The position numbers and the translations under genes were made by a program. 64,000 nucleotides of DNA from Amphiscolops sp. MND2022 (taxonomy: Eukaryota), in contig OZ076409.1 of assembly GCA_964187785.1 (NCBI GenBank), positions 64,668,001-64,732,000 of the forward strand, given 5' to 3'. Position 1 is the first letter of the stretch. Each line of letters opens with the position of its first letter. The notes under the pieces were generated by a model. The model was given only the letters and a program-made list of their open reading frames with translations, did not search any database and had not been told where the DNA came from. Below, in pieces: positions 1 to 48,074 of this stretch.

Positions 1-73
1 TTGCTAAAGAAGATACGAATTTATCGTCTTAGATAAAGAACCATTTTTACCGTAATAGACCGAGATTACATCA
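1..73 (+). repeat. 3' end of LTR of Gypsy family A (cut by window edge)
   Basis: Matches 5720-5792 and 11435-11507; ends GATTACATCA (other copies TACAACA) directly before the PBS. Confidence 0.93.
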
Positions 74-91
74 TGGCGCAGTAGCAAGATT
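74..91 (+). promoter_or_regulatory. Primer-binding site, tRNA-Ser-like (TGGCGCAGTAGCAAGAT); second copy at 5793
   Basis: TGG abuts the LTR end and resembles the complement of invertebrate tRNA-Ser 3' ends (TGGCGCAGTCGGTAGGAT). The tRNA identity is from memory. Confidence 0.75.
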
Positions 92-132
92 TACTTTTAT
101 CCGTAAATCCAATTTTAACTGACCAATTACCA

Positions 133-5622: not shown

Positions 5623-5792
5623 ACATAAAACTCTAATTACTGTCAATTTGAGTTTACTACATTTTGTGTTGTACAATAGAGTATTGACCATTGTACTTAA
5701 GATTGATGCTGTAGATTAGTTGCTAAAGAAGATACGAATTTATCGTCTTAGATAAAGAACCATTTTTACCGTAATAGACCGATATTACAACA
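5553..5792 (+). repeat. Shared central LTR, 240 bp
   Basis: TGTGATATC...TACAACA, flanked by a PPT upstream and a PBS downstream. Confidence 0.95.
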
Positions 5793-5851
5793 TGGCGCAG
5801 TAGCAAGATTTACTTTTATCCGTAAATCCAATTTTAACCGACCAATTACCA

Positions 5852-11337: not shown

Positions 11338-11507
11338 ACATAAAACTCTAATTACTGTCAATTTGAGTTTACTACATTTTGTGTTGTACAATAGAGTATT
11401 GACCATTGTACTTAAGATTGATGCTATAGATTAGTTGCTAAAGAAGATACGAATTTATCGTCTTAGATAAAGAACCATTTTTACCGTAATAGACCGAGAT
11501 TACAACA
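11268..11507 (+). repeat. 3' LTR, 240 bp
   Basis: About 3 substitutions versus the central LTR; followed by unrelated sequence ATTAT (candidate TSD half). Confidence 0.95.
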
Positions 11508-15020: not shown

Positions 15021-15665
15021 CGCTGAAATCGAATACTTTGCCATCACACTACCAGTTTGAACAAATGTTTTGCACATCCCAATACGTTACTGCTGTCAGT
15101 TGAAGTCTCACAGCGACATATTAATGTTTACAAAGTTTTTTCGAAATAAAACGCGCTGGCTTTTCAAGCATTTTTTATCACATAATTTTCAGTTCTTGAA
15201 GGGATCAAAATCTCCAAAGAAGTAACGCTGTTTAACGCTTTAAACACGCATTTCTGGTTACTATATGGCCGATTTGATTTCGCATTAAGATGAAATCAAC
15301 TGAAACAATCCGTACTTTTCTCCTTTCAGATGTTAGTATCTCTAGGCTTTTTAAGTGAAGATTAGGTACGAATGAAGAAACCCAAAGATGCCAACATCAT
15401 AAATGTATAGCTAATGAAAAGTAGTTTAGCATGGCTCATAAACATGTATACCATTTACTGTAGCCATGTATTAGGGTCCACAATCCTATAAGCAGCGGGT
15501 GGAATGATTTTATAAATTGTGATTGAATATGGAGAAAGCTTAGCCCAAATTACGGCTTCATAAACTACAAAAAAGTCACGAGGAACCTTTCAGTTTTTCG
15601 GGTCCAATACATGGAATCGCATAGCACAAGCGTAATATAGTCAAAGGAAAAAACTAGTTACTCCT

Positions 15666-16235
15666 AAAATACGTTTTTGTATCAAAAAATTTGGAAGTTT
15701 TTCTCTGGAAAGTCAGAAAAACCTGGCAAAATTGCAATTATACGTATGAAAATGCGACGGAATTGAGCTTCCATTGCTGAGAAAACCAACTGCTTGTAAG
15801 AAGAAAACATATCTGAAAAATGCAGAAATTTGACTCTGAAAATACGTTTTTGTATCAAAAAATTTGGAAGTTTTTCTCTGGAAAATCAGAAAAAACCTGG
15901 CAAAATTGCAATTATACGCATGAAAACGCGACGAAATCAAGCTTCCATTGCTGAGAAAACCATCTGCTTGTAAGAAGAAAAATATCTGAAATATGCAGAA
16001 ATTTGACTCTGAAAATACGTTTTTTGTATCAAAAAATTTGGAAGTTTTTCTCTGGAAAATCAGAAAAAACCTGGCAAAATTGCAATTATACGCATGAAAA
16101 CGCGACGAAATCAAGCTTCCATTGCTGAGAAAACCATCTGCTTGTAAGAAGAAAAATATCTGAAATATGCAGAAATTTGACTCTGAAAATACGTTTTTTG
16201 TATCAAAAAATTTGGGGTTTTTCCTTGGAAAATCA
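15666..16235. repeat. Tandem repeat, 173-174 bp unit, about 3.3 copies
   Basis: AAAATACGTTTTTGTATCAAAAAATTTGG recurs at about 15666, 15839, 16012 and 16186. Confidence 0.95.
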
Positions 16236-18980: not shown

Positions 18981-19141
18981 GATTCGTCTTCAAATTAGCT
19001 CATCTCAAGCCCAGCACGCTTTATTCAAAATTTTTATTTAGAATGGCGCTATTTGCAATTATTTTGATTTTTACTTTTGACGAAACCCCCCTCAATGTTT
19101 ACTAAAAACGAAACATTTTTGCTGGCATGCCATTTTTGCTG

Positions 19142-19275
19142 CATGAGTTTTTTGAATGAGGTCTCCGGTTAGTAGCATAAAGCTGAAAGCCCTAAGGAGT
19201 CCTCTATGCATAGAGGACTCCTTAGGGCTTTCAACTTTGTGCTACTAACCGGAGACCTCATTAAAAAAATTCACG
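19142..19275. repeat. 134-bp spacerless palindrome
   Basis: Centre CTATG|CATAG at 19208/19209; arms of about 67 bp with about 5 mismatches. Confidence 0.93.
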
Positions 19276-22200
19276 GAGTATTCGTCGTTGAGCTTTTCCA
19301 ATATTATCGATGTTTGTTTTTGCTGGGCCACCAAGGAGCTAAAGACACTCGATTTCGCTGAGGAAAAAATTTCAATCACAATTAATCTTCACAATCAATT
19401 GACACAAAAGTCTAAGATCCAAATTTTTGTCCCCTTTGGATCAGAATTACCGGGGTTTAGATAACTTACAAAAGTGTTGACACTTAGCTTCTTTTTGATT
19501 TTCGGTGTTTTTCGAAATGTATCATGCAATATCTTAAAAACCGCTGTTCGTATCAAAATAGCCCAAATTACGTACTTGTATCTTCGGTTCGAATCTCTAA
19601 CTATTGAATCTCACAGTTTTTCTGAAATCACGCTCCTTGAGAATTTACACAGCGAACTGGTGACAAAATGAAAATTCTCAGCAGAAACATTGTTTCGACG
19701 GAATTTCTACTACTTTGTCTCAAGAAAACAGATTCAGAGAAAACGCTGAAGATGGAAAACAAAGAATGCTGTCACGACTAAAAATTTTAATGAGGGAGCA
19801 AAACTTTTGACCGGAATTTAATTTTTTATATTTTTATTCGACTTCAAAACAAAAAATATTGTTGTAATTCCCGATCGAATTCGGAGAAATAGACCCTTAA
19901 CCACTTAACCTTCTTTCTGCTTTGTTATTTCTGTTTCTATTGCGCTGTTAACTGCGGCTGCTTAATAAAAGTAAGTTGAACCCAGTAACCAACTCATCCA
20001 TTTGTTGAAAAATTACCAGTGGATAATTTGTTGTTCAAAGATGTCTTTCTTTTTGTAAGCGAGGCCGCTGCAACTTCGCCTTGAATGTTCCACCGAAGTT
20101 TTGTATTCAGAAATTTGATCTTTAGGATGGAAACATTATCAGTGACCAGAGTGAAATATTTGAAAAAATGGAATTCTATAAATGACAGGTTTCCAAGTAG
20201 CTGGGGGACTGTTTTCAGGAGGTGCAACTTGGGGGGCCAATGGTTCATAAGGTGACCATTACCATCAGAAGCGTTAATTGGTTCCTGTCGCTCATAAGAT
20301 CCGTAATTTCTACAATGTATGTAGACTTTTGTACTAAACAATTTCTAGCTATTTTTAAAAACCAAAATTGAAAAGCATTAGGACAAGTTTTTGACACTAC
20401 TTAGAATGAGAAGAAAAATGAGATTCTGAGATTTGAACCACGATCAGTACATTTAACAAGTGTAGTGCCCGTGCCCGTGCTCCTGAATGTCTACCATCCA
20501 GCCTCTATTCTCTGTTGTACTTGTTCTGTTTGTTTATTCTGTTTTGTTCTGTGTTTATTCTACGACTTTTGTTTTTTTTTTCAGTGTAAGGTCTTGCATC
20601 ACGAGTTCACTTTATGTTTTGTCGTAATGGAATATTAAATATAATGAACTCCTTGAACTTCGGTAAGAGAAGTATAAGATTAAAATTTTCCATTCCTGCT
20701 TGTAGAGCTCTGAGATACTTTTATAGTAGCTCATAGGTCGGATGTAGGTCAAGTCGTCCATCATGCTCACAGAAAGACAGTATTTCCGCTCTAAAAGGTC
20801 CAGGAAATGAAAAAAGAGGCCCCTGAGATTCAAATCCCGTTCGCTTATGTCTTTTTCAGGGTTTCCCAAAGTAGTGATGAGATCCTTTTCATTCTCTTGG
20901 AATAATTGATCACTACGATCTCCAAGAAAAACAAAATTGCAAAAATATTTAACTGTAATTATCTTGGTGGTGCAGTGGCACTGAAATATTTTTGAAGACT
21001 GTTACAGGACGAAATTGAGAAATCAAGACGGTAACTGGCACAAGTCGGCGCCCCGCTCGAATCTCAGAAAGTGACAAGTATTTCATACAGTTTTGTAACT
21101 CTAATAGCAAATTAATTAATGCATTCATACATATAGTGTTCCAAAGCCGAGCATCTCCATTGCTGTGGTGATTCTCGAAGAACAAGATTCTTGAAACACT
21201 CTTAGTTTGGATATACTGCTTTTTTCATCATTATAAACGTTATATCAGATCACTGTTTTATTCAGGTTCAATTGGGAAAAATGCGAATGTTCGAAACCAA
21301 CTTGGGCCTACTTTCGGACAGATTCACTATAATGTGATTATAGCGCATTTTTATTGAGGTGCAATTCAATTTGAAAAGATACAGAAGTTCGACACAGGTT
21401 AGATGCAAACGCTCGCAATTAGTGACAAGTTCAAAAAAGGCTAAAAGTAAGTTTTTTTTCATATTTTTTTAGAAGAGGACCAAATTTGAGAAAATTGATG
21501 CTTCAGTTTATCGTCTTTCTGATGTAATCTAAGATTACCTTTCCAATGGAGCCATTGTTATTGTCTCGACGACAAGGAACGTAGAACCATCAATAAAGAA
21601 TCCGGAAAATGGAAAAATGGACTGAGCTGAACTTGTAGAATGCGATGAACCGCAGTGATTGAACAAGGAGGGTTGTCCGGCAAAAACGAGGGAAAAACTA
21701 AAACTCACCAATGATGCAGCCTACCGCTTCGGAGTAAAGACATTTCATTCAAGGTGCCTTGCTTTTGTTATTTCAGCAGCGTGACACAAGTTCGAAGAAA
21801 ATTATGATAAGTTTTGTTGTTCATGTTGTTCATTTTCGAAGAAAAATTCCCAATTTTTGTTGCTTTGCTATAGAAACAAAATAAAAAGAAGCCTGACCTC
21901 GACCAAACTCAGAAAGAGGAGACTCTGGGCGAAGGAAAGATGATGGCAATACATATTTTTAAACTTTTGGAAATCATTTACAAGCCCTAGAAGTGGCACA
22001 TAATCCAGTGTCTCTATTGTCTCTATCTAGAGGAAAATCAATGAATGGGTCCGATAAGTTTCCATTCATTAGTCCTTTATTTGCCCTTTATACTAGCGTC
22101 GTTCGCTACCAAAAAATGTCAGATATCATTTGAGTTTCATTGGAGGTTTTTATTGAGTCAGAGAAGTGTCACACGAAAGTCGTTCATGTCAAAAAAATTT

Positions 22201-32324: not shown

Positions 32325-33626
32325 TGAAATGTCTCGATGTAACGGCAAGCTGTCGCCATTGATTCTGCGCCAATCGGATAGAATCTATGACATGGGCATG
32401 TGCCCGGACAGACACCCATAGCCATAGCCCATTTTTGTCCGGGAGTAAAATGTGTCCTGTCAGGTGGAGATTCCACCTCTCAGGAGCACTTGCCGACATG
32501 CTCTAGTCTTGAGTGCTGTCACTATCATAAATTATGCTGCTCTTCTTCAAAATCACCGTCTAGACAGCTTTTATAAATGAAAATGGTATGGTGCCAAAAG
32601 TAAATTCTTTCAGAATACAGGACATGGAGAACTTATAGCTCACGAGCTAATACAACCATAAAACACGATGAATAACAGCTTCCTTGACAATCTACGGAAA
32701 TTAGTAAGGGAACACACGCACCTTTTGCTTGATTGAGCCAAGAGACTCATTCAATGCATTTTTTTACTATGCGAAGCATCTTACTAAAGAAAGCACCAGT
32801 TTGTCATGGCAAGATTTGCAGTTTGCTTTTTGAGAGTTCTCGTGAGAACTTTGCGTTTGTCTTTATCTGCTATTTTGGGTCTGCTACGTGGCAGATATGA
32901 TTCGGAGCCTTCCCAATTCTCCGGAAAACTCTTTTCACTGAGACGGCAGCATTTTTTTGGCAACCAAATGAAAATTGCGGTTGCCTTGCTCCTTGACAGC
33001 ATTTTTAACCACGATGTAATGGGTGCTCGTTTTATACTCCCCGGAGTCCATGCTCGGCGTCCCCATTAGGATACTTATGCCGCAACCAACTAGCAAGACC
33101 TTGCTAGTTCGAATAACATCCAATAAAAACGCGTTCTTATTTCAGATACGCGTTACGAGTATTGCTCGTTACACTGGTTGATTTGGCGTTACGCTTAGTG
33201 ATCAAAATTCAGTAAATGACTACTTTACACTCTCTACAATTACGTACTGTGACTGGTTTCCACTTCACACACGAATGGAAACATCGTTTGGAGTTATTTT
33301 TACTCACGGTGTGTACCAAAATTCTTTACTGGTAATCACTTTTTTCTAATTACGCTCAATGATCTCATTCCGAAATTTCTGATTACACTGTGCATCAACA
33401 TGCACTGTTTGACTAGAATACGGTTCGCTCTCGTCTTACGGAAAATTCACTTTACACTTGATGATAAATTCCACTTTTGCGGCATATGTATCGTAATGCC
33501 CACCAAGCAGGCAGCTGAGTTGCTGCTAGGGAGTATGAAGTTATCATGATTCGTCTTGCATCACGGATGTTGTCATTGAAGAGTGCCGTTGCCGGCATCA
33601 CGTGTGATTCTACAGCTTGTTATACA
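32325..33626 (-). repeat. 5' LTR of the minus-strand element, about 1.3 kb
   Basis: TGAAATG...TTATACA on the plus strand; aligns with 24807-25764 and 35039-36360. Confidence 0.8.
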
Positions 33627-34774
33627 CTGCAAGTTGCAGGTTTGCCTTTGCAGCAACTTGATTGCAACTCGCAGTTCCCTTGTTCATTGAACGAATTTTT
33701 CAATCTTGATATAAGATGTGATCGCTACATACATACGACAAACGATATCTAAAGCACTAAAGAAAAATGAAGAGACATAAGAACCAACAAAAATGCCATG
33801 AAAACGCAAAAGAAATCACGAAAGACCGCAAATACAACGACTGCGGTTTCTGTGGACTACCTTTATTATTCAACACAGATGCCCCGCGAAAGAAGATGCC
33901 TGCAACAACTGGGAAAAAAGCGGACACTTTGCTTGAGTGTCACAAAACTAACTGAAAACAACGCCAGAAAAGTAGTGATGTACACAATGACCATCGATGT
34001 CCAGGCGAAGACGAAGACTATGTTCAATTATGCTATATAGATGTGTCAACGTTTTTATCCAGAAACAATACTATTTTGTACAAAAGCTTTGCAAGACCAC
34101 GTTTCCTTGTTTCAAGATCTTTAAAGGTAATTTTGGGTCTGACGGAGCACATCCAAAGTTCCAATTTTTTTTCCAAATTGCGCCAAACAACTAACCCCAC
34201 GTCAAAAATGAGTCAAGGAAAAAATCTTATAAAAAAGTTTTGGCATCGCAAGTAGAGTTTCTCTTGATGTCGCGAAACCTTCAAAAAAATGGCCCCCAGC
34301 AGAATTCTGACTCACCGAAATTTGACATTTCGTTTTTGTCTCTTTGCTCGAGGAGCCAAACTTAGTGCTTGAATTTTAAACTGTCGTAATTCGTGAAAAA
34401 AATTAACGAAAAAAAGAACGAAAAGAAGCATGGAAAAAGAACGCTGAAACGAAAATATTGGGAAACCACTGAAAACTTAGTTGATTTAGAAGCCTTCTTT
34501 CTGTTTCAAAGATATTGTAATGAAGAACAGCCACAAAAAAACTGCATGTCAAATGCATCAATAGAGGTGTTTCTCAATCATTTATTCTTCGGTTATAAAA
34601 ATAATAAATCTTGGAAACATTTATCGTCGACTGGGGACAATAAAACATGGGGAGCATCTATTTTTTGCATTTACTATTCAAAAGTTTTAGGAGTTTTATC
34701 TTTGTGGAAGCGCGAAAGCCGCCAAAATTACGTAAATCTTTTAAAGAAATGCTAGAACTAACAGGTTGTGTACT

Positions 34775-37510
34775 AACAAAATTCGCAAAGGCAAGGTTAA
34801 AAATTGGTTGGGCACGTGGCGAATTTCTTAAGCCAAACAAGAGGACAGAGAAACTCCAGAATAAAATTGGATAAGAAACTGATATACAAATAAAAAGCTG
34901 CCAGCTCAAAGACAAGAAACAAGAGGATCTACTAATCTCCAAACTTATGACAAGCAACATTGAAAGAACTTCAGCGAAAAATTCATACAAAAGAAAATAC
35001 TAGATATTGAAATATATATGTAATTGAGTACTCATGCATGATACTCGAACGGCAAGCTGTCGCCATTCATTCTGCGCCAATAGAGAGGAAAGAATCAATG
35101 ACATGGGTATATGACCGGACAAGTACCCATAACCATAGGCCCATTTTCGTCCTGGAGTAAAATGTCTCCCGTCAGGAAGAGATTCCACCTCTCAGGAGCA
35201 CTTGCCGACATGCTCTAGTCTTAAGTGCTGTCACTGACATATATTATGCTACTCTTCTTCTTCAAAATCAACGTCTAGACAGCCTTTAAAAATGAAGGTG
35301 GTATGGTGCCAAAGGTAAATTCTTTCAGAATACAGGACATCAAGAAATCATAGCTCACGAGCTAATACAACAAAAAAAAACACAATAAATAACAGCATCA
35401 TTGACAATCTACGGCAAATAGTAACGGAACACAAGCATAGCATGCTTGATTAAGCAAAGAGACACATTCAATGCAATCATTACTTTGAGTAGGATTTTAT
35501 TAAAAAAAGCGTCAGTCTTATGCGCGGTCTGTCCTGGCAAGATTTGCAGTTTGCTTTTTGAGAGTTCTCGTGAGAACTTTGCGTTTGTTTTTATCTGCTA
35601 TTTTGGGTCTGCTACGTGGCAGATATGATTCGGAGCCTTCCCAATTCTCCGGAAAACTCTTTTCACTGAGACGGCAGCATTTTTTTGGCAACCAAATGAA
35701 AATTGCGGTTGCCTTGCTCCTTGACAGCATTTTTAACCACGATGTAATGGGTGCTCGTTTTATACTCCCCGGAGTCCATGCTCGGCGTCCCCATTAGGAT
35801 ACTTATGCCGCAACCAACTAGCAAGACCTTGCTAGTTCGAATAACATCCAATAAAAACGCGTTCTTATTTCAGATACGCGTTACGAGTATTGCTCGTTAC
35901 ACTGGTTGATTTGGCGTTACGCTTAGTGATCAAAATTCAGTAAATGACTACTTTACACTCTCTACAATTACGTACTGTGACTGGTTTCCACTTCACACAC
36001 GAATGGAAACATCGTTTGGAGTTCTTTTTACTCACGGTGTGTACCAAAATTCTTTACTGGTAATCACTTTTTTCTAATTACGCTCAATGATCTCATTCCG
36101 AAATTTCTGATTACACTGTGCATCAACATGCACTGTTTGACTAGAATACGGTTCGCTCTCGTCTTACGGAAAATTCACTTTACACTTGATGATAAATTCC
36201 ACTTTTGCGGCATATGTATCGTAATGCCCACCAAGCAGGCAGCTGAGTTGCTGCTAGGGAGTATGAAGTTATCATGATTCGTCCTGCATCACGGATGTTG
36301 TCATTGAAGAGTGCCGTTGCCGGCATCACGTGTGATTTTACATTCTACCTGTGTTATACACTGCAAGTTGCAGGTTTGCCTTTGCAGCAACTTGATTGCA
36401 ACTCGCAGTTCCCTTGTTCATTGAACGAATTTTTCAATCTTGATATAAGATGTGATCGCTACATACATACGACAAACGATATCTAAAGCACTAAAGAAAA
36501 ATGAAGAGACATAAGAACCAACAAAAATGCCATGAAAACGCAAAAGAAATCACGAAAGACCGCAAATACAACGACTGCGGTTTCTGTGGACTACCTTTAT
36601 TATTCAACACAGATGCCCCGCGAAAGAAGATGCCTGCAACAACTGGGAAAAAAGCGGACACTTTGCTTGAGTGTCACAAAACTAACTGAAAACAACGCCA
36701 GAAAAGTAGTGATGTACACAATGACCATCGATGTCCAGGCGAAGACGAAGACTATGTTCAATTATGCTATATAGATGTGTCAACGTTTTTATCCAGAAAC
36801 AATACTATTTTGTACAAAAGCTTTGCAAGACCACGTTTCCTTGTTTCAAGATCTTTAAAGGTAATTTTGGGTCTGACGGAGCACATCCAAAGTTCCAATT
36901 TTTTTTCCAAATTGCGCCAAACAACTAACCCCACGTCAAAAATGAGTCAAGGAAAAAATCTTATAAAAGTTTTGGCATCGCAAGTAGAGTTTCTCTTGAT
37001 GTCGCGAAACCTTCAAAAAAATGGCCCCCAGCAGAATTCTGACTCACCGAAATTTGACATTTCGTTTTTGTCTCTTTGCTCGAGGAGCCAAACTTAGTGC
37101 TTGAATTTTAAACTGTCGTAATTCGTGAAAAAAATTAACGAAAAAAAGAACGAAAAGAAGCATGGAAAAAGAACGCTGAAACGAAAATATTGGGAAACCA
37201 CTGAAAACTTAGTTGATTTAGAAGCCTTCTTTCTGTTTCAAAGATATTGTAATGAAGAACAGCCACAAAAAAACTGCATGTCAAATGCATCAATAGAGGT
37301 GTTTCTCAATCATTTATTCTTCGGTTATAAAAATAATAAATCTTGGAAACATTTATCGTCGACTGGGGACAATAAAACATGGGGAGCATCTATTTTTTGC
37401 ATTTACTATTAAAAACTTTTAGGAGTTTTATCTTTGTGGAAGCGCGAAAGCCGCCAGAATAACGTAACTCTTTTAAAGAAATGCTAGAACTAACAGGTTG
37501 TGTACTAACA
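34775..37510 (+). repeat. Second unit of a tandem segmental duplication (of 24543-34778) in which the element is reduced to a solo LTR
   Basis: 34775 to about 35540 is near-identical to 24543 to about 25310, and about 35540-37510 is near-identical to about 32810-34778. Confidence 0.88.
35039..36360 (-). repeat. Chimeric solo LTR
   Basis: Same ATGCA/CTGCA flanks as the full element; left part carries left-LTR variants, right part carries right-LTR variants including the 435-bp segment. Confidence 0.85.
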
Positions 37511-37621
37511 CAACCGTACTCGAAAAAGATTAGAAAGGAATCATTGCCACATGGTGTAAATTCAAAATACAGTTACTCCAAATTTTAATATTTTTATCTG
37601 AGAATCGAGTTAGCTACAACA
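37435..37621 (+). repeat. 5' LTR family B (187 bp); truncated duplicate at about 34703-34778
   Basis: Aligns with 48075-48260 with many substitutions. Confidence 0.9.
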
Positions 37622-40313
37622 TGGCGCTGCGAGATTATTCATCGGACAGCGGGAACATGGCAAAAGCAGCCGGAACATCAGCAGTCGCGAAATTGCCAAC
37701 ATATTGGGAGTCGCCAGAATCAGCTGCTAAAATAGAATGTGAGGAGTGGTGGAAGCTGTTCATGGTCGCCGTAACCGCCAAATATTCAATATCGGTAGAA
37801 GAATTACTTCGAACTGTAACAGAGCAAAGACCACGAAATGCGGCCTAACTCAATAATTTGAACAAGCAAGCAGCTGAACAAAAACTAGTCAGTCTATTAT
37901 TCTTATCATTAGGAACTGCGGCAAGAAAAAACCTGACAGACAAAATTCTGTACATGATAATAGCCACAATGTCCATGAGAGAGATTAAAGACAATTGTGA
38001 ACAAGCATTCATGAAACCCCGAAATAGAACATTAGAACAATAGAAATTCTTTGCACAAAAAATGATAGAGAAAGTAACCTCACGACAGTTCTGGCACGCA
38101 TTAACAGGACAGTCAGCCAAATGCGAATTTGGAGATCAAACGGAGAGCCTTATAATGGACGCGTTCATACAAAAAAGGAACAACAAGGCATTACAAGAAA
38201 GACTCAAACACAAAACGTACGAAGGAAGAAGCACAGGAAAACGCGAAATGAAGCTAAACCAACATTCATGGTAAACGAAAACGAAAAACATGCACCAGGT
38301 GTGGATTCGATTTCACAAAAGAACATTTAGCTTGTTGTAACGAAAAGAACGAACAGTGCAGAAGTTGCGATATGTTTCCGCACGAATGTGCAGAATAACA
38401 AAATCTGGCAATTCGGGAGGAAGCGGAAGAAACACAAATCGTGCTAGAATGACACGACTGAATTTAATTGGACGAGAAGACGATCAATTAGAAGTTGGCT
38501 GCGATAACGACAAAGACAAAATGGTATTACACGTTAATTGAAGCGGTAATCAACCTTTCGTAATGAAAGGGAAAGTAAACAAAGAATCATTTACAGCTAT
38601 GACTGATTCAAGATCTCCAATTACAATTTTTACGCAAGCGGACTTACGAAAAATACGCAAATTAGATGTCATCTTCCCCGCTCGACCAATGCTGATCAAC
38701 GACAAATATGTCGATTACAATAATCAACCGCTTAATCTAGCGGGATTCATAACAGCAGACTTACAGTGGGGCGGAAGAACATCAAAAACGCAAGGATAGT
38801 CAACAATCGAGACAGGAAAAGATCACTAAATGGAAGAGACTGGCTAGCAAAACTGAACTTTAGAGTAGATGGAGCAAGTGAGAACAGTGGGAATAATAAC
38901 GCTGTTAATTACATAGATAACCAAAACATTTACATTGAAAAACTTAAACAAAAATTTCCAAATCTATTTACAACACAAGGAAAAATGAAGACTATCAAAA
39001 ACACATTGAGTTCAAGCAAAATGCAATGATTACCCAACAGAAGGGACGAAGAGTGCCACTGCAATGACAGGGAGCAGTAGAAAAAGAAAACGATAAACTG
39101 CTGGGAGAAGAACCAAACATCATCAGAAGAAATGAGGAACGACTGGTTCACAGGTAACGAAATGAAACATGAAAAGTCTGTTTGAGGTGAGCAGAAACAG
39201 AGTGGAGAAGGAAAACAACCAATCACACACGAGCTGGCAGAAAGAAATGAGCGCGAGAAAACGGAGAAAGCGGCAAGTGTGAACGTAGAGAGTAAACAGA
39301 CTAAACAAACAATAAAAAGCATAATTGGTCTCAATTAACGAGAACGACAGCGATAGTAAAACGGACAAAATAAGCTCAAGTGAATCAGAAATGGAAATAT
39401 CAGCTACTGAATTTGCAAACAAACTGCCATTAAGAATTCCAATTTGCTACTCAAAAAATCAAGTTGAGATTCTCTAAACACAAGGGAACTACACGTTTGC
39501 CGCAAATTTCGAAAGCGACGAATTTCACAAAAAAAACCAAGACTAATGAAAACGCCGGACATTACAAAGCTAAACTGATTACCGGCTCCGTGGCGTGAAA
39601 GTTTCGCTGCTTCAGTAGAGACAGCAACGATTACATTTTATTGGACAAAAGACTGGAAGTCCAAAAAGCACTGTGCCCCATTAACTTACGAAGTCTACAT
39701 TATGGCCTACCAGGACGCGACAGCATGCTGGCAACAGTTGAAAACGTATTGTGGCCAAAACTACACCGAGAAGTAGTGGGGCTAGCAAAACACTGCCAAC
39801 AATGCCAAGTATCCGGTAAAAACAAAAAACCAATGCTAAGACAAAAGGAAAGAGGCGACTTCCAACGTGTACTGTTGATCACTACAATAGATGGCCAGAA
39901 GCTAAATGTCTATGAAAACCAAACACAGAGAAAGTAATAGAATTTCTAAAGGAAAACATAGCAAGACATGGAATCCCACAATACGAACGGACCCTTCCAC
40001 AATTTTGAAAAGTAACCGATTCAAACTGTTCTGTGAAACTAGATGAAAAAAGTACGTAGTGTCGCGCTATGACTAACGCTCTAACAAACGGTGCTGTTTA
40101 TATTAAAATGACACAGGCATAAAAGAAACAGGAAATGGAACTAACGTTGTGTGGGAGCGAAGAAGTGAAGGGAATAAAATGGTAATGGCGGCGGCCATAA
40201 CGCGGCGGCCGCGAAGAGAAATAGAATAATAAGGAAGTACTACGCGAGAGGAATTGCACAAGTGAAAAGTTCTATTGTTTACCGCGTAGATTTAAAATTT
40301 TACTGAAACCGTC

Positions 40314-40413
40314 ATTGGCTGTCCGCAAGTCATGCCGGTCTAGGCCCTCCAGCGGAAAGTGCGGAAAGTGCGGAACGGTTTTTATACCGCGCGCACAGGC
40401 TGGAGCTTCATTC
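40314..40413 (+). promoter_or_regulatory. Putative Pol II promoter in the LTR (also at +4901 in the 3' LTR)
   Basis: ATTGG at 40314; GCGGAA three times at 9-nt spacing (40352-40375); TTTATA at 40381; Inr-like TCATTC at 40408, about 27 nt downstream. Confidence 0.6.
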
Positions 40414-40877
40414 TTCCCGCCGAACGGCCTGAGCTCAACTTAACCAGCTCTCTTCCCTCTTCCCTTCTCTTCCTTCACTTCACTTCTCTTCGCTTATTTT
40501 TACTCTTTTCCCCCCTTCACTCCCATTTCCCACTTTCTCTTATTTTCCCTCACTTCCCTCTTCTTACGCTTACCTTAGACTTAAAAAAGTCTATCTCCCT
40601 CTTTGGCTCTTACTTCAGCCAAATCCCCCTTGCTCACAATTCATTCTCTTCCCCTTATCTTCAGCAAATCCTATCTTTGCAAATTTTCAATCTCCTTCCC
40701 AAAAATTTTCTATCTTAGAAAATTTTCCCCAACACTCCTCGGTCTTCGGTTTGGTGAGTCGAAAATATCTTAGATTCTTTTCTCAGTGGAGAGATTTCTC
40801 TCTCCCTTTTTCTAAACCTTTTCTAACTTAGAACAAATTTTCCCGGATACCATTCCGCGGTTTTAACCAGTTCTAAC

Positions 40878-41318
40878 TTAGATTTTTCTCCGCTGATTTC
40901 ACTCTGCGGGTCTAACTGATTTTATCTTAGCATATTTTCCGCTGATTTTACTCCGCGGTTCTACTTAGATTTTTCTCCGCTGATTTCACTCTACGATTCT
41001 AACTGATTTCATCTTAACATATTTCCCGCTGATTTTACTCCGCGGTTCTAACTAAGATTTTTCTCCGCTGATTTCACTCTGCGGTTCTAACTGATTTTAT
41101 CTTAGCATATTTTCCGCTGATTTTACTCCGCGGTTCTAACTTAGATTTTTCTACGCTGATTTCACTCTGCGGTTCTAACTGATTTTATCTTAGCATATTT
41201 TCCGCTGATTTTACTCCGCGGTTCTAACTTAGATTTTTCTCCGCTGATTTCACTCTGCGGTTCTAACTGATTTTACCTTAGCATATTTTCCGCTGATTTT
41301 ACTCCGCGGTTCTAACTT
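40878..41318 (+). repeat. 88-bp tandem repeat, 5 copies (dimer of 39/49-nt subunits), inside the LTR; also at about 45779-46219
   Basis: TTAGATTTTTCTCCGCTGATTTCACTCTGCGGTTCTAAC alternates with TGATTTTATCTTAGCATATTTTCCGCTGATTTTACTCCGCGGTTCTAAC. Confidence 0.95.
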
Positions 41319-42012
41319 TGAATATTTCCTGCTGATTTATGCAGTAAATTTACAAAATAGAATTATCAAGATTTAGCCCTAACCTACGAAATATATGACA
41401 TATATTTATTTCTTTGAAAAGTCTTAAAGCTATTTCTGATCAAAAGAAATAGAGACTCAAAACTATAAAAGTGCTGTTTAAACTAATACAGCTTGTAAAC
41501 TTATTGCTCAATGAATTAGTTTCCTAAAAATAAAGGAAATTTCGATGATTATTTTAATCTTTGCTCCGGATTGTAACAGTAAAAATATTACTTTGGTTGA
41601 AGATAAATTGAATAGTTGAAGCGACTGGAAATTATAAACTTGGGAACTGATACTGCTATGCCTAGTAAATCATAATATGTACTAACACCCATTCCCTTTA
41701 CACAATTCAACGCTTTTGCTAAATTTGTTTTCCCTTCCCAGATAGCTCATTTACGTACACAGCCTTGCACTTACTCACGCAACTTCCTTTGTCCGCACGT
41801 ACACGCAAGGCATTCCTTTTCAATACTACACTGAGTAAGCTATTGAGACTTCCTTTCTCATTTCTAATCTATAAAGGAATGGTCGCCTGAGAATACTTTG
41901 CAAAAAGCAACAGAAGTTTAACTGACTAATACTGATAACAATTGAACTGTCCCTTGAAAGGAGTAAACAGGAAATAGAAAATAGTAAGATTTTATTCATG
42001 CGTGCGACAAAC

Positions 42013-42030
42013 TGGTGCGACCAGTGAGGC
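42013..42030 (+). promoter_or_regulatory. Primer-binding site (TGGTGCGACCAGTGAGG), tRNA uncertain, possibly Leu
   Basis: TGG 3 nt after the LTR end. Confidence 0.75.
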
Positions 42031-42391
42031 AGTTTCTTCAGTAAATGAGCAATCAGTTGGAATCCCTACTCGTTGAAGTTAGGGTTAACTACTCACTCAC
42101 TCTGATTTCAATCTCTACTTTGTTTCTTTGTTTGCCACAATATGTTACAACGTTACCAGGGAAAACGCACATTTCCGAGGTACTCATCAGCAATAGAGCA
42201 CGAAGCCCTCACCGCACAGACTCAGGTATCACCTCACCGGAAAACCAGCAGTTTCTGACGCCCACCTCTCCTGGTCAACCGTCAACCTCCCAACCACCTG
42301 GCATTGAGACACTACTTCAAACCAAAATACAACCACTTGCTATACAAAAATAGCTCCCCTGAACAATTTTCCCAAAGACCCAACTCTGAAG

Positions 42392-42940
42392 ATGTCAACA
42401 ACGTCAAACACTCTCATACTCCATGACGACCCCCAAATAACTCTATCACCTCCAATACTTACAAAGGTGTCTACAAGAGGTGGAATGGTACTTATCAAAC
42501 TGGACCAAATCGCCGTTACACATCTGAGAACAGCCGGGCTGCCACACCCGTTTCACAGAAGCTATTACCACTGGGCTACCACAGGACCCCTTGATTTGCA
42601 ACCTCTCGAATTGCCACCCCTCATAGCAACAGTCAAAATTTATTGGAATGGATGTTCCAAACAAGAAACTAATAAATTTGTATCTGTTTTCGTTGCAATC
42701 CGAGACCCTGACCACAAACCTCTCTCCACCCCCCTCATTGTACGGCTATTTTACAAAAACTTCAAGAACAAAAACGGACAGTCACTGCACCGAAGCTTCA
42801 AATTAACGCCTTCTGGAAATAGCATCGAAGGTGGAATCAAAGACTTCCTGCCCCTCACTATTTTCAACGCTACTCTAGCTAAAGACAATATCGTCTCTTT
42901 CGGCATTCTTATCAAACGCTTCTCACCCCCAGCTCCATAA
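42392..42940 (+). CDS. Stand-alone MATH/TRAF-domain-like protein, 182 aa
   Basis: GMVLIKLDQI, VKIYWNG...KFVSVFVAI and GIKDFLPL...LAKDNIVSFGILI follow the MATH motif order (FxWKI; LxIYPNG...LSVFL; GxxxFIxLxxL...L.DDxLxI). ATG to TAA intact. Confidence 0.72.
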   Translation: MSTTSNTLILHDDPQITLSPPILTKVSTRGGMVLIKLDQIAVTHLRTAGLPHPFHRSYYHWATTGPLDLQPLELPPLIATVKIYWNGCSKQETNKFVSVFVAIRDPDHKPLSTPLIVRLFYKNFKNKNGQSLHRSFKLTPSGNSIEGGIKDFLPLTIFNATLAKDNIVSFGILIKRFSPPAP

Positions 42941-43356
42941 GATACATTTCTACCCTCAGTAGTCTTTGGTACTTTCTCGGACCCTTTCTTCTGGGCAATC
43001 CTCTGATAGCAAAATTTTAAGCAGACAACCTGGACCCACCGGTCTTCCTAGAATACTTAGACTTAGTTTACTATATAGACAACAAAGAAAGACAATTCTT
43101 GTAATTCTCTCCATTGTCTAAAAAAAAAGGCTGCAATAATTCATGTAGAAATCCACAGCTTCGGGCTACACCAACCAGAACTTTGGGTTATCCTCGGTCA
43201 ACACGACCTCAGTTAGCACTTTTCCTTCTCAACAAACTAATCGACTTCATTGATTCGAGAAGAAGAAACAAACTCTCTCCCAGTCTACAATCAATCAGCG
43301 ACAGTTACAGTTGAACCTTCACAAATAGTTGAAGTTAGTTTCTTTCACATTTCCAT

Positions 43357-43635
43357 TTAGGCACTTTTTAACAGTAGTGAGGTTACTACTATAAAATTTT
43401 AACCTCCGCTTAGTGTTAGTGCCCACTAAGCTGTCGGTTTGATATTACGACTTGCCTTTTTACGGCCTTATTACGGATCCACAATCTTGAACAAAACAAA
43501 GAAACAACTAGACTTATATACCTCTTAGGCACGTTTGAACAGTAGTGAGGTTACTACTATAAAATTTTAACCTCCGCTTAGTGTTGTGCCAGCTAAGCTG
43601 CCGGTTTGATATTACGGCTTGCCTTTTTACGGTCT
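43357..43635 (+). ncRNA. Duplicated structured RNA motif of about 111 nt (43357-43468, 43525-43635)
   Basis: Three hairpins and two loop-distal complementarities in both copies; compensatory change GTCG/CGAC to GCCG/CGGC. Confidence 0.6.
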
Positions 43636-43943
43636 CTACTAAAAACTTAGGAACACTTACGCAATTGATTGCAAAAAGACTGAAGATTTTCTAAAATGAA
43701 ATTATTACTCATTTTATTTTTTGCGCCAAATTACGCGCCCGTTGTGATATCACAACGTCCAACCCCAAACCTCGCTAGCGTTGTTAAAAATCTGCGAGTT
43801 ACTCAGTTCCTCTGCTAAGAGATGACCCAAAATAAACTCTACGAGATGAATCAAGTCACCCGAAATAGTGGGTAAAGGCAGACTTGCCGGATACTTGCTC
43901 ACGGGGCACGAACTAAGTCCCCAAACACTGATGGAAGCCTTGC

Positions 43944-44912
43944 TTGGCTTCAACACTGTCTGAAACCCGTCTCACTCCTTCACACAATGAATTAATGATG
44001 CGAACGCATCCCTATCTTCTACAAAAAAGTAGTTGCTTTCGTGAACCCATTGAACAGCAAAACCTATCGTTATACGAACGTGCAAACTTCACTGAATTGC
44101 GCCAAGAACCTCTTCCAAGGAAAAACTTGAAAGACAAAGATTCCTGGTTTACACTTATACTGTCACCCGAAAATTGGGACCTACCAGCTTTCTTCGGAAC
44201 AAAAGACATCCAGCCAATGATTACCAGGTCCTCCCCTGGATCACAATATACAAGAATGTACACCCCAAACAACTATCTGATATTTGGTCCAGCATCCTCA
44301 TTAGCGCAGCATCAATGAATGCCCTTCAGAAGTTTTCCAGCGAACTCAGTGTACCCTCCATGGCTCACATCAAAAAAAAAAAGATCAAAATGGAAGATGA
44401 AAATGAGCGAGTAGAACTCTAAGAAAAATCAAACTGCCCATCCGTGTAGAGATTTGTTACTCCAATCTAAACAATCTAAACAATGTTTCACTTTTACTAA
44501 TTGCAACCTATTATTCTACATACCAAACCTGGACGACGACACCCTTGATCCAATCTTAGAAGACTATCTACACTTTGATGAACAACTACGAATCTACCCA
44601 AACAACTTCACCCTCCCTCGAGCATGGCCTTTCGACCGACAAGTGGAAATCTCCATCATAGATCAAAAGGACAGAAACAATAAGTGGTCTACCTACTTCC
44701 CAAACAACTCTGACAAGACCTACCTAGATGACACCAACATCAGCGCTTACACCCTTCCTCACCTCACGCGAGAAGATTTCATCCCCCAAACAAAACTTTT
44801 GGTCAACTTCAGAGAAGCCTTCTTAAACAACGACTCTATAACCCTCCAAATTAAATTTAACGAAGCCCCCTTCACAATCCCAAGTGCTAAAGAAAGCCCC
44901 CCTCATTTCTGA
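43944..44912 (+). pseudogene. Second cargo gene, apparently frameshifted, with a C-terminal TRAF-type MATH domain (44454-44912 open)
   Basis: AWPFDRQVEISIIDQ resembles TRAF LxWPFxxKVTLxLLDQ; DFIPQTKL...AFLNNDSITLQIKF resembles the MATH C-terminus; the expected upstream strands (IRVEICY...VSLLLI) lie in another frame at about 44440-44505. Confidence 0.65.
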
Positions 44913-44948
44913 CCCACTCCTCCTACCCCATCCTCTTTTCTCCCTGCC

Positions 44949-44960
44949 AGGGGGGTGAGC
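44949..44960 (+). promoter_or_regulatory. Polypurine tract (AGGGGGGTGAGC)
   Basis: Immediately precedes the TGT of the 3' LTR. Confidence 0.8.
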
Positions 44961-46910
44961 TGTCGCGCTATGACTAACGCTCTAACAAACGGTGCTGTTT
45001 ATATTAAAATGACACAGGCATAAAAGAAACAGGAAATGGAACTAACGTTGTGTGGGAGCGAAGAAGTGAAGGGAATAAAATGGTAATGGCGGCGGCCATA
45101 ACGCGGCGGCCGCGAAGAGAAATAGAATAATAAGGAAGTACTACGCGAGAGGAATTGCACAAGTGAAAAGTTCTATTGTTTACCGCGTAGATTTAAAATT
45201 TTACTGAAACCGTCATTGGCTGTCCGCAAGTCATGCCGGTCTAGGCCCTCCAGCGGAAAGTGCGGAAAGTGCGGAACGGTTTTTATACCGCGCGCACAGG
45301 CTGGAGCTTCATTCTTCCCGCCGAACGGCCTGAGCTCAACTTAACCAGCTCTATTCCCTCTTCCCTTCTCTTCCTTCACTTCACTTCTCTTCGCTTATTT
45401 TTACTCTTTTCCCCCCTTCACTCCCATTTCCCACTTTCTCTTATTTTCCCTCACTTCCCTCTTCTTACGCTTACCTTAGACTTAAAAAAGTCTATCTCCC
45501 TCTTTGGCTCTTACTTCAGCCAAATCCCCCTTGCTCACAATTCATTCTCTTCCCCTTATCTTCAGCAAATCCTATCTTTGCAAATTTTCAATCTCCTTCC
45601 CAAAAATTTTCTATCTTAGAAAATTTTCCCCAACACTCCTCGGTCTTCTGTTTGGTGAGTCGAAAATATCTTAGATTCTTTTCTCAGTGGAGAGATTTCT
45701 CTCTCCCTTTTTCTAAACCTTTTCTAACTTAGAACAAATTTTCCCGGATACCATTCAGCGGTTTTAACCAGTTCTAACTTAGATTTTTCTCCGCTGATTT
45801 CACTCTGCGGGTCTAACTGATTTTATCTTAGCATATTTTCGGCTGATTTTACTCCGCGGTTCTACTTAGATTTTTCTCCGCTGATTTCACTCTACGATTC
45901 TAACTGATTTCATCTTAACATATTTCCCGCTGATTTTACTCCGCGGTTCTAACTAAGATTTTTCTCCGCTGATTTCACTCTGCGGTTCTAACTGATTTTA
46001 TCTTAGCATATTTTCCGCTGATTTTACTCCGCGGTTCTAACTTAGATTTTTCTACGCTGATTTCACTCTGCGGTTCTAACTGATTTTATCTTAGCATATT
46101 TTCCGCTGATTTTACTCCGCGGTTCTAACTTAGATTTTTCTCCGCTGATTTCACTCTGCGGTTCTAACTGATTTTACCTTAGCATATTTTCCGCTGATTT
46201 TACTCCGCGGTTCTAACTTTGAATATTTCCTGCTGATTTATGCAGTAAATTTACAAAATAGAATTATCAAGATTTAGCCCTAACCTACGAAATATATGAC
46301 ATATATTTATTTCTTTGAAAAGTCTTAAAGCTATTTCTGATCAAAAGAAATAGAGACTCAAAACTATAAAAGTGCTGTTTAAACTAATACAGCTTGTAAA
46401 CTTATTGCTCAATGAATTAGTTTCCTAAAAATAAAGGAAATTTCGATGATTATTTTAATCTTTGCTCCGGATTGTAACAGTAAAAATATTACTTTGGTTG
46501 AAGATAAATTGAATAGTTGAAGCGACTGGAAATTATAAACTTGGGAACTGATACTGCTATGCCTAGTAAATCATAATATGTACTAACACCCATTCCCTTT
46601 ACACAATTCAACGCTTTTGCTAAATTTGTTTTCCCTTCCCAGATAGCTCATTTACGTACACAGCCTTGCACTTACTCACGCAACTTCCTTTGTCCGCACG
46701 TACACGCAAGGCATTCCTTTTCAATACTACACTGAGTAAGCTATTGAGACTTCCTTTCTCATTTCTAATCTATAAAGGAATGGTCGCCTGAGAATACTTT
46801 GCAAAAAGCAACAGAAGTTTAACTGACTAATACTGATAACAATTGAACTGTCCCTTGAAAGGAGTAAACAGGAAATAGAAAATAGTAAGATTTTATTCAT
46901 GCGTGCGACA
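44961..46910 (+). repeat. 3' LTR, 1950 bp
   Basis: Direct repeat of 40060-42009. Confidence 0.97.
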
Positions 46911-48074
46911 GTAGAATGTCCCATTCGTGACCATAAAGGGAACGGTAAAATAGAACGACTAATTAGAACAATCAACGAACAATTAAAAGCAAAAAAGAAC
47001 GTAATTATCAAAGTAAATAAAAGGACGCAACTGGGCTGTGTGAAATACTATTCCAGCTGAGAATGAATCTATCAGCCAATAAGAAATCACCTAATGAAAG
47101 ATACACCGGAAAGGAACCAAATACGATAAAAAGACTGGTAACTAATCACCCTCGGTTTATTTTAGAACACCCAGAATTCAGCATCACTGAATAAGACTTT
47201 GAACCCGAACAGGACTCAACAATTTTTGGCCGCGAACGAACGAAAGGCTCAAAGCTCGAGGGAACATACAAAAAGATAAAGTCAGTACTGCTCGAACAAA
47301 ACAACTACACAATAACTCGCTTGCCAGCAGGAAGATCATAAACGACCGTAATCTCGAAAAAAAAGTGGGACAATAAATACACCATGTTGTTCAAAACGGC
47401 GACAATCGCAAAAGATGCCAAAAACCAACAAAATGGCAGAACACGAAGAAACGGCAACAAGCGAGGATGAGTCAAAAACAACGACAACATCAACCACACT
47501 GAGCAAACAAAATCAAAGGGACTCAACAACTCAAACAGAAATGACGGTAATAAACGAAAACGCGAAAAAGAAGCAAACAAAGGCATTGACTACTTTGAAA
47601 CAAAAAATCCGAAAAAGACAACAGACAGAACGTCACAAAAAGACAAAGCAACTACAAAACCAATGGATTGAACAAAATACGATTCAATCAATGTCAGAAA
47701 ACGACGAGAATGAAGAAGCTAACCAAAACCCAGAAAACCCAGGGAGTGAGAGAGAGAGAGACAAGAGAGACAAGAGATCGAAAATCAACAAGCTGGAAAC
47801 AACCAGCAGGTAGACCGAGAACAAAAACACGCCAATACTCAGAGAAGAAACCCAACTTGGCCGAAATCGAACGTTGCCGCGACCAAAAAACCGAAGCAAA
47901 CCCAACTTCTTTGCCCTAAAACGCTGGATCACCTGAGCACTAAAAACCTTAGTGCATTTAAGCACTGAAACATTAAAATTTGAGTTGCTACATTTATATT
48001 ACTTACCATTCGCCTTCACATACAGAGTACTGTAAATACGTAGACCCGAGTTCTTTTCCATAAATTGTGGGAGA

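Follow-up and report, generated by a model that had tools for sequence, protein, structure and literature searches.

Most of what is known about how gypsy elements express their env gene and mark genomic RNA comes from Drosophila. In Drosophila gypsy, env is made from spliced RNA, and the element contains two IRESs (PMC4276936; this and the following sources are cited from part of their text). Gypsy elements that carry env occur widely among animals (PMC13524379), and the available main text of that source mentions neither IRESs nor pseudoknots, splicing, MATH domains or RNA structure. The extra ORFs of bdelloid elements are typically spliced, with MATH likewise unmentioned in the part of the source available (PMC5408684). 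Among structured RNAs of LTR elements, the musD transport element (MTE) combines a kissing interaction with a pseudoknot and is required for export (PMC5767303), while the ENE of Evade, a triple-helix element, promotes LTR-element mobility (PMC12501189). Viral points of reference are the type 6 (dicistrovirus IGR) IRESs, where a pseudoknot (PKI) lies directly before an open frame that begins at a non-AUG codon (PMC12221177), and the class 1 xrRNAs, which have five stems in fixed order and a base triple (PMC8632102).

Here we describe a tandem RNA motif found in a 64,000-nt stretch of DNA (hereafter the window, meaning the whole stretch that was analysed). The motif is real and, going by covariation, structured, and its function is predicted below; we found no description of it in the literature searched, a scope outside which most subscription papers and supplements fall.

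Two putatively structured units inside a young LTR element

The motif consists of two 107-nt units on the + strand with a period of 168 nt (Table 1). Unit-to-unit alignment (43357-43468 against 43525-43635) gives 92.9% identity over 112 nt; the spacers look unrelated. We infer that the sense RNA of each unit would fold into an H-type pseudoknot (S1/S2, including an A-rich strand) packed against a second hairpin, P3, the loop of which forms P1 with the 5' end of the unit. No nucleotide intervenes at the S1/S2 junction, where one pair probably opens. A sequence-only reading of the window had drawn attention to this arrangement, and the GGCAC, AGTAGT/ACTACT, GAGGTT/AACCTC, GTGCC-loop hairpin and 168-nt period that it named are all in place in both copies. 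That reading had also put the motif between two cargo ORFs, which turned out to be mistaken: the 3' ORF is the remnant of a deleted env (ATG 43696), not cargo.

Table 1. Positions of the motif and of the element that carries it, counted from the first nucleotide of the window.
Feature	Position	Strand	Basis or remark
Target-site duplication GTAG, 4 bp	left 40056-40059, right 46911-46914	+	read from sequence
5' LTR, 1950 bp, TG...CA, with 88-nt tandem repeat	40060-42009	+	99.8% identical to 44961-46910
PBS-like sequence	42013-42029	+	after 5' LTR in 5/5 full elements; 0 shared substitutions in 21 sites
MATH1, intact 182-aa ORF	42392-42940	+	Pfam MATH_2, E 0.008, below cut-off
Accessory ORF B, broken remnant	43105-43314	+	precedes array in autonomous relatives
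Unit 1	43360-43466	+	sequence, covariation, descriptor search
Unit 1 P1, GGCAC / GTGCC (P3 loop)	43360-43364 / 43419-43423	+	read from sequence
Candidate 3' splice acceptor, pyrimidine stretch and CAG overlapping S1 start	43365-43374	+	YAG in 49/52 distinct 5' contexts; inferred
Unit 1 S1, AGTAGT / ACTACT	43373-43378 / 43385-43390	+	read from sequence
Unit 1 S2 (loop-loop helix), GAGGTT / AACCTC	43379-43384 / 43401-43406	+	read from sequence
Unit 1 L3, A-rich	43391-43400	+	
Unit 1 P3, GCTTAGTG / CACTAAGC	43408-43415 / 43424-43431	+	read from sequence
Unit 1 P4, GTCG / CGAC, loop conserved	43433-43436 / 43448-43451	+	GCCG/CGGC in unit 2
Unit 1 P5, extra short hairpin, GCC / GGC	43454-43456 / 43464-43466	+	read from sequence
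Variable spacer	43467-43527	+	top identity to env-intact relatives 77%; 9 shared substitutions in 61 sites
Unit 2	43528-43633	+	sequence, covariation, descriptor; 3 shared substitutions in 106 sites
Unit 2 P1	43528-43532 / 43586-43590	+	
Unit 2 S1	43541-43546 / 43553-43558	+	
Unit 2 S2	43547-43552 / 43569-43574	+	
Unit 2 P3	43576-43581 / 43593-43598	+	
Unit 2 P4	43600-43603 / 43615-43618	+	
Unit 2 P5	43621-43623 / 43631-43633	+	
Env remnant, from ATG 43696	43696-44367	+	tblastn/blastn against env of L066
MATH2, 5'-truncated post-env MATH/TRAF ORF remnant	44415-44912	+	Pfam MATH_2, E 3e-4
Polypurine tract	44949-44960	+	read from sequence; same in relatives
3' LTR	44961-46910	+	99.8% identical to 5' LTR

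Both units sit inside a young non-autonomous LTR element (40060-46910) whose 5' LTR is 97-98% identical to that of a gag-pol-bearing relative (L222/L223). MATH1 has 132 matches in the source genome. Just upstream of the array, 43200-43310 is 63-90% identical to the end of ORF B in six relatives; downstream, env keeps residues ~1-54 (43696-43856) and ~406-567 (43883-44367) of a 715-aa protein, its middle deleted and the remainder broken in the window copy by stops and frameshifts. An intact 312-aa relative of MATH2 scores 40.5 bits, above the cut-off.

The 88-nt repeat of each LTR (40853-41338, 45771-46239) has an internal 44-nt likeness. LTRs of the copies L199-L217 are only 66-72% like the window's, although their internal regions are 90-97% identical; taken with the helper-like LTR of the window copy, this points to repeated LTR swapping. 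Just 5' of the array, both subfamilies carry a conserved ATG followed by two codons and GTTAGT (GTAAGT in L120), at 43326-43340 in the window, whose copy has lost the ATG, and at L051:5918-5935; this may be a donor-like site or a short upstream ORF. An in-frame mini-exon from this ATG-NNN-NNN-GTTAGT to env was rejected, as distances of 47/48 nt are not conserved. Elsewhere in the window there are a 5.7-kb tandem duplication (98.8%; 1-11507), a 173-174-nt tandem repeat (15660-16235), a palindrome with 70-nt arms and no spacer (19139-19278) and a 2.7-kb tandem duplication (32341-37513).

Compensatory changes in four helices

Within the 64-kb window, a Watson-Crick descriptor comprising the pseudoknot, P3 and the 5' pairing matches the two units on the + strand and nothing else on either strand. 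When unit 1 was shuffled 30,000 times with dinucleotide composition preserved, not one shuffle contained even the H-type pseudoknot. Because the descriptor was built from this motif, these figures speak for rarity, not function. Variation among relatives was followed in two hand-picked sets. In the larger (20 units looking shared or intact, drawn from 78 distinct cores) 99.0% of 620 cells are paired and five pairs show two-sided changes, two of them in S2 and one each in P1, P3 and P4. The other set, of 13 units, adds the short units of L051 and the diverged unit of L233, and has two-sided changes at 4/6 pairs of S2 and 2/4 pairs of P4. Note that the sequences in these sets are related, so that shuffle counts are not to be read as probabilities. 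Compensatory changes thus fall in four helices, including both pseudoknot helices; in P1, for example, a GGTAC variant is matched by a loop changed to GTACC. S1 is the exception, its sequence being invariant in both sets; it never covaries. Two proposals of the sequence-only reading come through this check well: the double-pseudoknot model, with compensatory changes in S2 and P1, and a covarying third stem (GTCG/CGAC versus GCCG/CGGC), since two-sided changes in P4 occur in both sets of units. Covariation of S2 and P1 also suggests long-range tertiary pairings of the sort that characterise transport elements.

Which strand folds is less obvious from nested models, where the + strand is unremarkable (z -1.8 and -0.5) and the - strand does better (z -3.6 and -2.6). 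In an H-type pseudoknot, however, an A-rich loop takes the place of L3 on the + strand only. We prefer the + strand for this reason, because it is the sense strand of the element, and because among the 20 units G-U variants occur at nine pairs against six unpaired cells overall.

The search of Rfam that had been suggested returned no family overlapping the motif (Rfam 15, E up to 10; none of six weak matches lies there); five loci gave one weak unrelated match and L233 two sub-threshold ones. The sequence-only reading had also envisaged a switch, with a downstream TGCCT as alternative partner of the 5' AGGCA. Both sequences are present in the window, but variation lends the switch no support: shared variants have T, C or G in place of the A, TGCC fails to track the GGTAC change, and the duplex is predicted at -7.0 versus -10.0 kcal/mol. 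Pairing of L3 with the P4 loop (-0.1 kcal/mol) and a palindrome in L3 as a dimer site (weak, at -4.6 kcal/mol) were rejected as well.

The array is a standard part of giant env-bearing elements

In the source genome (1.07 Gb) a DNA search returned at least 59 matches, with 40 of 140 candidates scored, and an exact 31-nt core pattern has 221 matches versus none for its control. Diverged units were sought there via env neighbours, MATH1 neighbours and exact patterns. Arrays comprise one to five units per element, single-unit elements included, and lie directly 5' of env; in the fuller relatives of this family (family 1) the last S1 precedes the env ATG by 116-174 nt. Some units are short, those of L051 having no P1 of their own. 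Env of the fuller relatives is 715-716 aa long and matches Pfam Monjiviricetes_fusion (E 1e-32 and 8e-35). Autonomous relatives span ~17.8-19.6 kb: gag comes first, then a 1750-aa pol and some small accessory ORFs, and the array stands before env, after which a MATH/TRAF ORF follows. Pol has the domain order RT-RNaseH-IN, and the gag match is weak (E 1e-4). Judged by LTRs, gag, pol domain order and env, the host elements are env-carrying Ty3/gypsy retrotransposons, and in giant autonomous elements of this kind the motif is no cargo spacer but a standard env-proximal part.

Two other env families occur in the genome, with env ~53-61% identical and different tandem repeats at the same place; the PBS-like sequence is common to all three families. 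An array is followed by env in 30/30 sampled loci of family 3 and 28/30 of family 2. In family 3 the array consists of five units. Their stems covary, the first stem is followed by an A-rich strand and there are U-rich internal loops; TATAAA comes after the first stem in units of both family 1 and family 3. Since our model of the family 1 unit (R1) finds neither the family 2 and 3 arrays nor the distant MATH1 loci, these arrays would be analogues or very distant homologues of the family 1 array.

Several further observations concern these relatives. The autonomous elements (L218/L113/L219, L220/L051/L221, L224/L110/L225 and L226/L105/L227) share one PBS. Between pol and env they have several accessory ORFs without Pfam match, some of which overlap stop-to-start (L113:7572-7967 and 7957-8301), as in termination-reinitiation. 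The post-env ORF (L066:8204-9142, L051:9119-10000, L219:3157-4056; in the window the MATH2 remnant) has a TRAF-type MATH domain preceded by an N-terminal PAM2-like motif (in L066, Pfam E 0.009, below cut-off); a MATH ORF also closes the elements of families 2 and 3. Such a PAM2-MATH protein may have poly(A)-binding protein and signalling adaptors as partners. In family 3, the env leader L110:7400-8170 holds five covarying multi-stem units in a 1.1-kb AUG-free stretch, four of the five with ENE-like U-rich internal loops; in family 2 (L105:7950-8540 and L101) it holds imperfect repeats of 76 and 147 nt with predicted multi-hairpin units. Close to the env start, the two families share a short motif that resembles a hairpin. 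Distant MATH1-like ORFs (22-26% identity) lie at L059, L063, L064, L065 and L070 within inverted repeats of 1.6-4 kb and 86-99% identity, which suggests a fold-back family carrying MATH genes.

The motif is present in more than one source, as judged from sequence. A metagenome contig (L233), one of eight metagenome loci found by env alignment and of five inspected upstream, has a diverged unit (55.3 bits, E 4.8e-10 against the model) in front of an env 48% identical to that of family 1. It retains S2, P3, the GTGCC loop, two upstream GGCAC and a TGATATTA loop; there is an ATG in its P4 loop, and env of the same copy also has a stop. Its env is 87% identical to a clade with a close member, P0004, that is absent from the source genome above 59%; given this and the 48% identity, L233 probably derives from another host. 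Across the board, env clades P0013, P0004, P0011 and P0084 were not found in the source genome beyond 59-72% identity. The model found no unit in the more distant loci L229, L231, L232 and L234, motif patterns had no match in viral contigs or in prokaryote genomes, and env had no relative among the viral contigs searched.

A putative AUG-free leader, and conservation after env loss

Two signals bear on function. One lies between the array and env. ATG is missing from the stretch between array start and env in 40 of the 42 env-intact loci of family 1; these loci are not independent, many being near-identical or one insertion. In family 3, two copies have none in 1,099 and 1,101 nt and two older copies have two and three; family 2 has one or two. 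Other non-coding stretches of the same elements, used as a control, contain 97 ATGs in 9,851 nt; L149, L096, L099 and L120 are left out of the count that goes with this control. Units begin at YAG in 49/52 contexts. Together, the AUG-free stretch and the YAG starts suggest that the array belongs to the leader of env mRNA.

The other signal comes from copies that have lost env. The env deletion is common to 20/20 window-type copies, which are separate insertions with paired LTRs 84-100% identical and in which neither ORF flanking the array is intact. Across these 20 copies, shared substitutions affect 9/213 sites of the units (six in unit 1, three in unit 2) versus 245/1816 other internal sites, a comparison set without MATH1 and PBS (Fisher p 2.6e-5), and a test of shared versus singleton changes in units against elsewhere gives p 0.006. 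Shared counts are likewise low in MATH1 (37/549) and over the initial 100 nt downstream of the LTR (3), and the counts are overdispersed, one stretch of the env remnant (43719-43825; four in 107) falling between unit 2 and unit 1. In six young copies, 54-59 of 373-382 first and second codon positions that are invariant in intact env have changed (~15%), and the units of the same copies differ at 1-4/106 nt from the nearest of 34 env-intact units, a comparison biased low. Unit 2 is 98% identical to intact relatives; its neighbours reach 77%, 84% and 86%. Taken at face value, conservation of the units in env-deleted copies suggests purifying selection. There is another route to the same pattern: in a recombinant (L094/L029) a window-type 5' half is joined to intact env, and unit 1 is 100% identical to it. 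With recombination this frequent, as the helper-like LTR of the window copy also indicates, units could be refreshed from env-intact partners. Separately, MATH1 shows weak constraint in env-deleted copies (12 synonymous and 19 non-synonymous shared changes versus 20 and 75 singletons; p 0.06).

What the array might do

We tentatively favour the view that the motif is a cis-acting post-transcriptional element of the element RNA, akin to the MTE or CTE and serving export or packaging. Env-deleted copies keep the array and are still mobilised, so it is likely a handle without which the element's own RNA would not spread, most likely through nuclear export or stabilisation, possibly through packaging, of full-length RNA before copying. 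Invariant S1 and the P4 loop (UGAUAUUA) may form a recognition surface for a host or element protein, and additional unit copies would then be additional binding sites. The array would form the 5' margin of the env exon and overlap with its likely splice acceptor. Given the pyrimidine-YAG unit start and the absence of AUG before env, it would be present on both the unspliced genomic RNA and env mRNA, which is easier to reconcile with a role in export or stability than with packaging alone; a protein-binding post-transcriptional element in this position fits both the AUG-free leader and the independence from env. Against this reading, the fixed position 5' of env in all three families and the AUG-free leader point more naturally to a role in env expression, the minus strand folds better in nested models, and a comparison with Rfam over the motif and five loci found no sequence likeness to known transport elements.

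The functions listed in the sequence-only reading include the likely packaging-type cis signal as well as the main rivals, IRES-like element and xrRNA. If the array were an IRES or a land-and-scan site, env would be translated from polycistronic or uncapped RNA and env-deleted copies would keep the array through recombination with helpers. An array always directly 5' of env in family 1, and followed by env in all sampled loci of family 3 and nearly all of family 2, would make sense on these terms, as would the lack of ATGs between the two, and Drosophila gypsy with its two IRESs offers a precedent (PMC4276936). We nonetheless consider this unlikely. An IRES for the second ORF, as originally put forward, cannot explain why units are conserved once env is gone; a stop precedes env in all three offsets after the pseudoknot in 7/8 elements (one element is open at PK+1), so that type 6 initiation fails; the ATG in the P4 loop of L233 sits badly with it, though that env also has a stop; and a splice acceptor, if present, makes an IRES unnecessary. 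Alternatively, each unit might block Xrn1/Xrn2, so that decay leaves env subgenomic RNAs starting at units, with tandem copies as back-ups in flavivirus-like manner. In its favour, conservation sets in abruptly at the 5' G of P1, the sequence upstream of it being free, and two pseudoknots (one involving the 5' end), tandem copies and an AUG-free path to env agree with it. Yet the helix order is unlike that of the five-stem flaviviral xrRNA (PMC8632102), no Rfam xrRNA matches, short units of L051 manage without their own P1, and env-deleted copies would have no evident benefit from conserving units; we regard the nuclease block as decidedly doubtful. A joint reading, a shade more probable than the block by itself and less so than the IRES, would make the array part of a new class of modular retroelement RNA machine. 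Giant env-bearing gypsy elements would have interchangeable tandem structured RNAs at the env boundary; by nuclease block or ribosome entry, perhaps aided by the element's PAM2-MATH protein, these would make or translate env subgenomic RNA without a promoter, and they would also license genomic RNA for spread.

Splicing offers a further explanation, which we rate on a par with the nuclease block: S1 would hide the AG of the env 3' splice site and set the ratio of unspliced genomic to spliced env RNA, splicing itself removing the P1 strand and remodelling the leader. Here the YAG at the S1 start becomes meaningful, all the more so as its first base is C or T, though only T extends the stem; the invariance of S1 and retention without env are accounted for too, and gypsy env in Drosophila is made from spliced mRNA (PMC4276936). 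The family 3 array and one family 2 array begin at acceptor-like sites whose AG-free runs measure 92 and 129 nt; among control gaps, 9/397 reach 75 nt. However, the sequence ahead of the AG is only moderately rich in pyrimidines (0.5-0.75), in the other family 2 subtype the AG-free run is just 23 nt long, and the conserved P4 loop is left unexplained. A new self-cleaving ribozyme that cuts env RNA from a longer transcript seems very improbable, even if a compact double-pseudoknot fold, invariant unpaired residues, tandem copies and a sharp 5' boundary are features one might look for in one, since env-deleted copies conserve the motif and cleavage would cost them their genomic RNA. Nor were known cores found, in line with the earlier judgement by eye that hammerhead, HDV-like and twister consensus do not fit. 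Hammerheads have CUGANGA and GAAA in their core, and CTGANGA is absent from both strands of both units; HDV-like ribozymes have P3/L3 before the 3' strand of P1 and P4 with the catalytic C before that of P2 (P4-J4/2), places at which we read only 3-5 nt and 1-2 nt; twister and pistol have a conserved catalytic core, and the AAGC found is a paired P3 strand, with no Rfam ribozyme match at E up to 10. A -1 frameshift signal, which needs a slippery heptamer in an open frame 5' of its stimulator, was also rejected: AAATTTT lies in L3 and TAA closes the frame immediately before it. Finally, the TATAAA after the first stem might be read as a tandem core promoter or poly(A) signal acting at the DNA level, which we find scarcely credible, as the diverged homologue L233 has AGAAAAATTT in its place and compensatory pairs in four helices are unexpected of a promoter.

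If the array is, as we tentatively hold, a post-transcriptional element, its kind is already known, that of retroelement cis-acting RNAs; the double-pseudoknot tandem module itself is undescribed in the literature searched. With natural variants, variable copy number, two analogous arrays in sister families and an outside homologue, it lets each rival function (export, packaging, IRES, Xrn1 block, splicing) be tested on an RNA of 110 nt. Should it prove to be a compact new fold for export, Xrn1 resistance or ribosome entry, it could also serve as a tool.

Comparison with known systems

The elements themselves resemble the Ty3/gypsy elements with an env of the gB type (class III) that PMC13524379 surveys, 'errantiviruses' if the term is taken broadly. 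They share gag, an RT-RNaseH-IN pol, a Monjiviricetes_fusion env and many near-identical copies, and they differ in size (18-19 kb), in the extra ORFs before env and in the MATH/TRAF ORF after it.

As for the motif, its first half resembles PKI of a type 6 IRES: a hairpin loop pairs with a strand ~10 nt downstream over an A-rich loop, and the location is intergenic. Unlike in the IRES, the unit opens with its PKI-like part: the H-type pseudoknot comes first and hairpins follow, so that a ribosome-binding PKII/PKIII domain 5' of it is absent; moreover, env has its own AUG and a signal peptide. With flaviviral class 1 xrRNAs the motif shares tandem copies and two pseudoknots, one of which uses the 5' end. 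It departs from them, compared by eye with the published description as far as available, in helix order, in having no three-way junction with a base triple and in not lying in a 3' UTR. An ENE is a U-rich internal loop flanked by stems near a poly(A) tail. The family 3 array has such U-rich internal loops, whereas the family 1 unit has none between its stems and lies ~1.3 kb 5' of the 3' LTR.

The MTE, RTE, CTE and MLV PTE differ from the motif in that it is only ~107 nt long, is repeated one to five times, has no sequence or Rfam match to them, belongs to a Ty3/gypsy element with env and is predicted to act in export. What unites them is that all are structured cis-acting RNAs of LTR retroelements, that the MTE has a loop-loop interaction and a pseudoknot (PMC5767303), as predicted for the motif, and that the motif, like them, would be needed by the full-length RNA.
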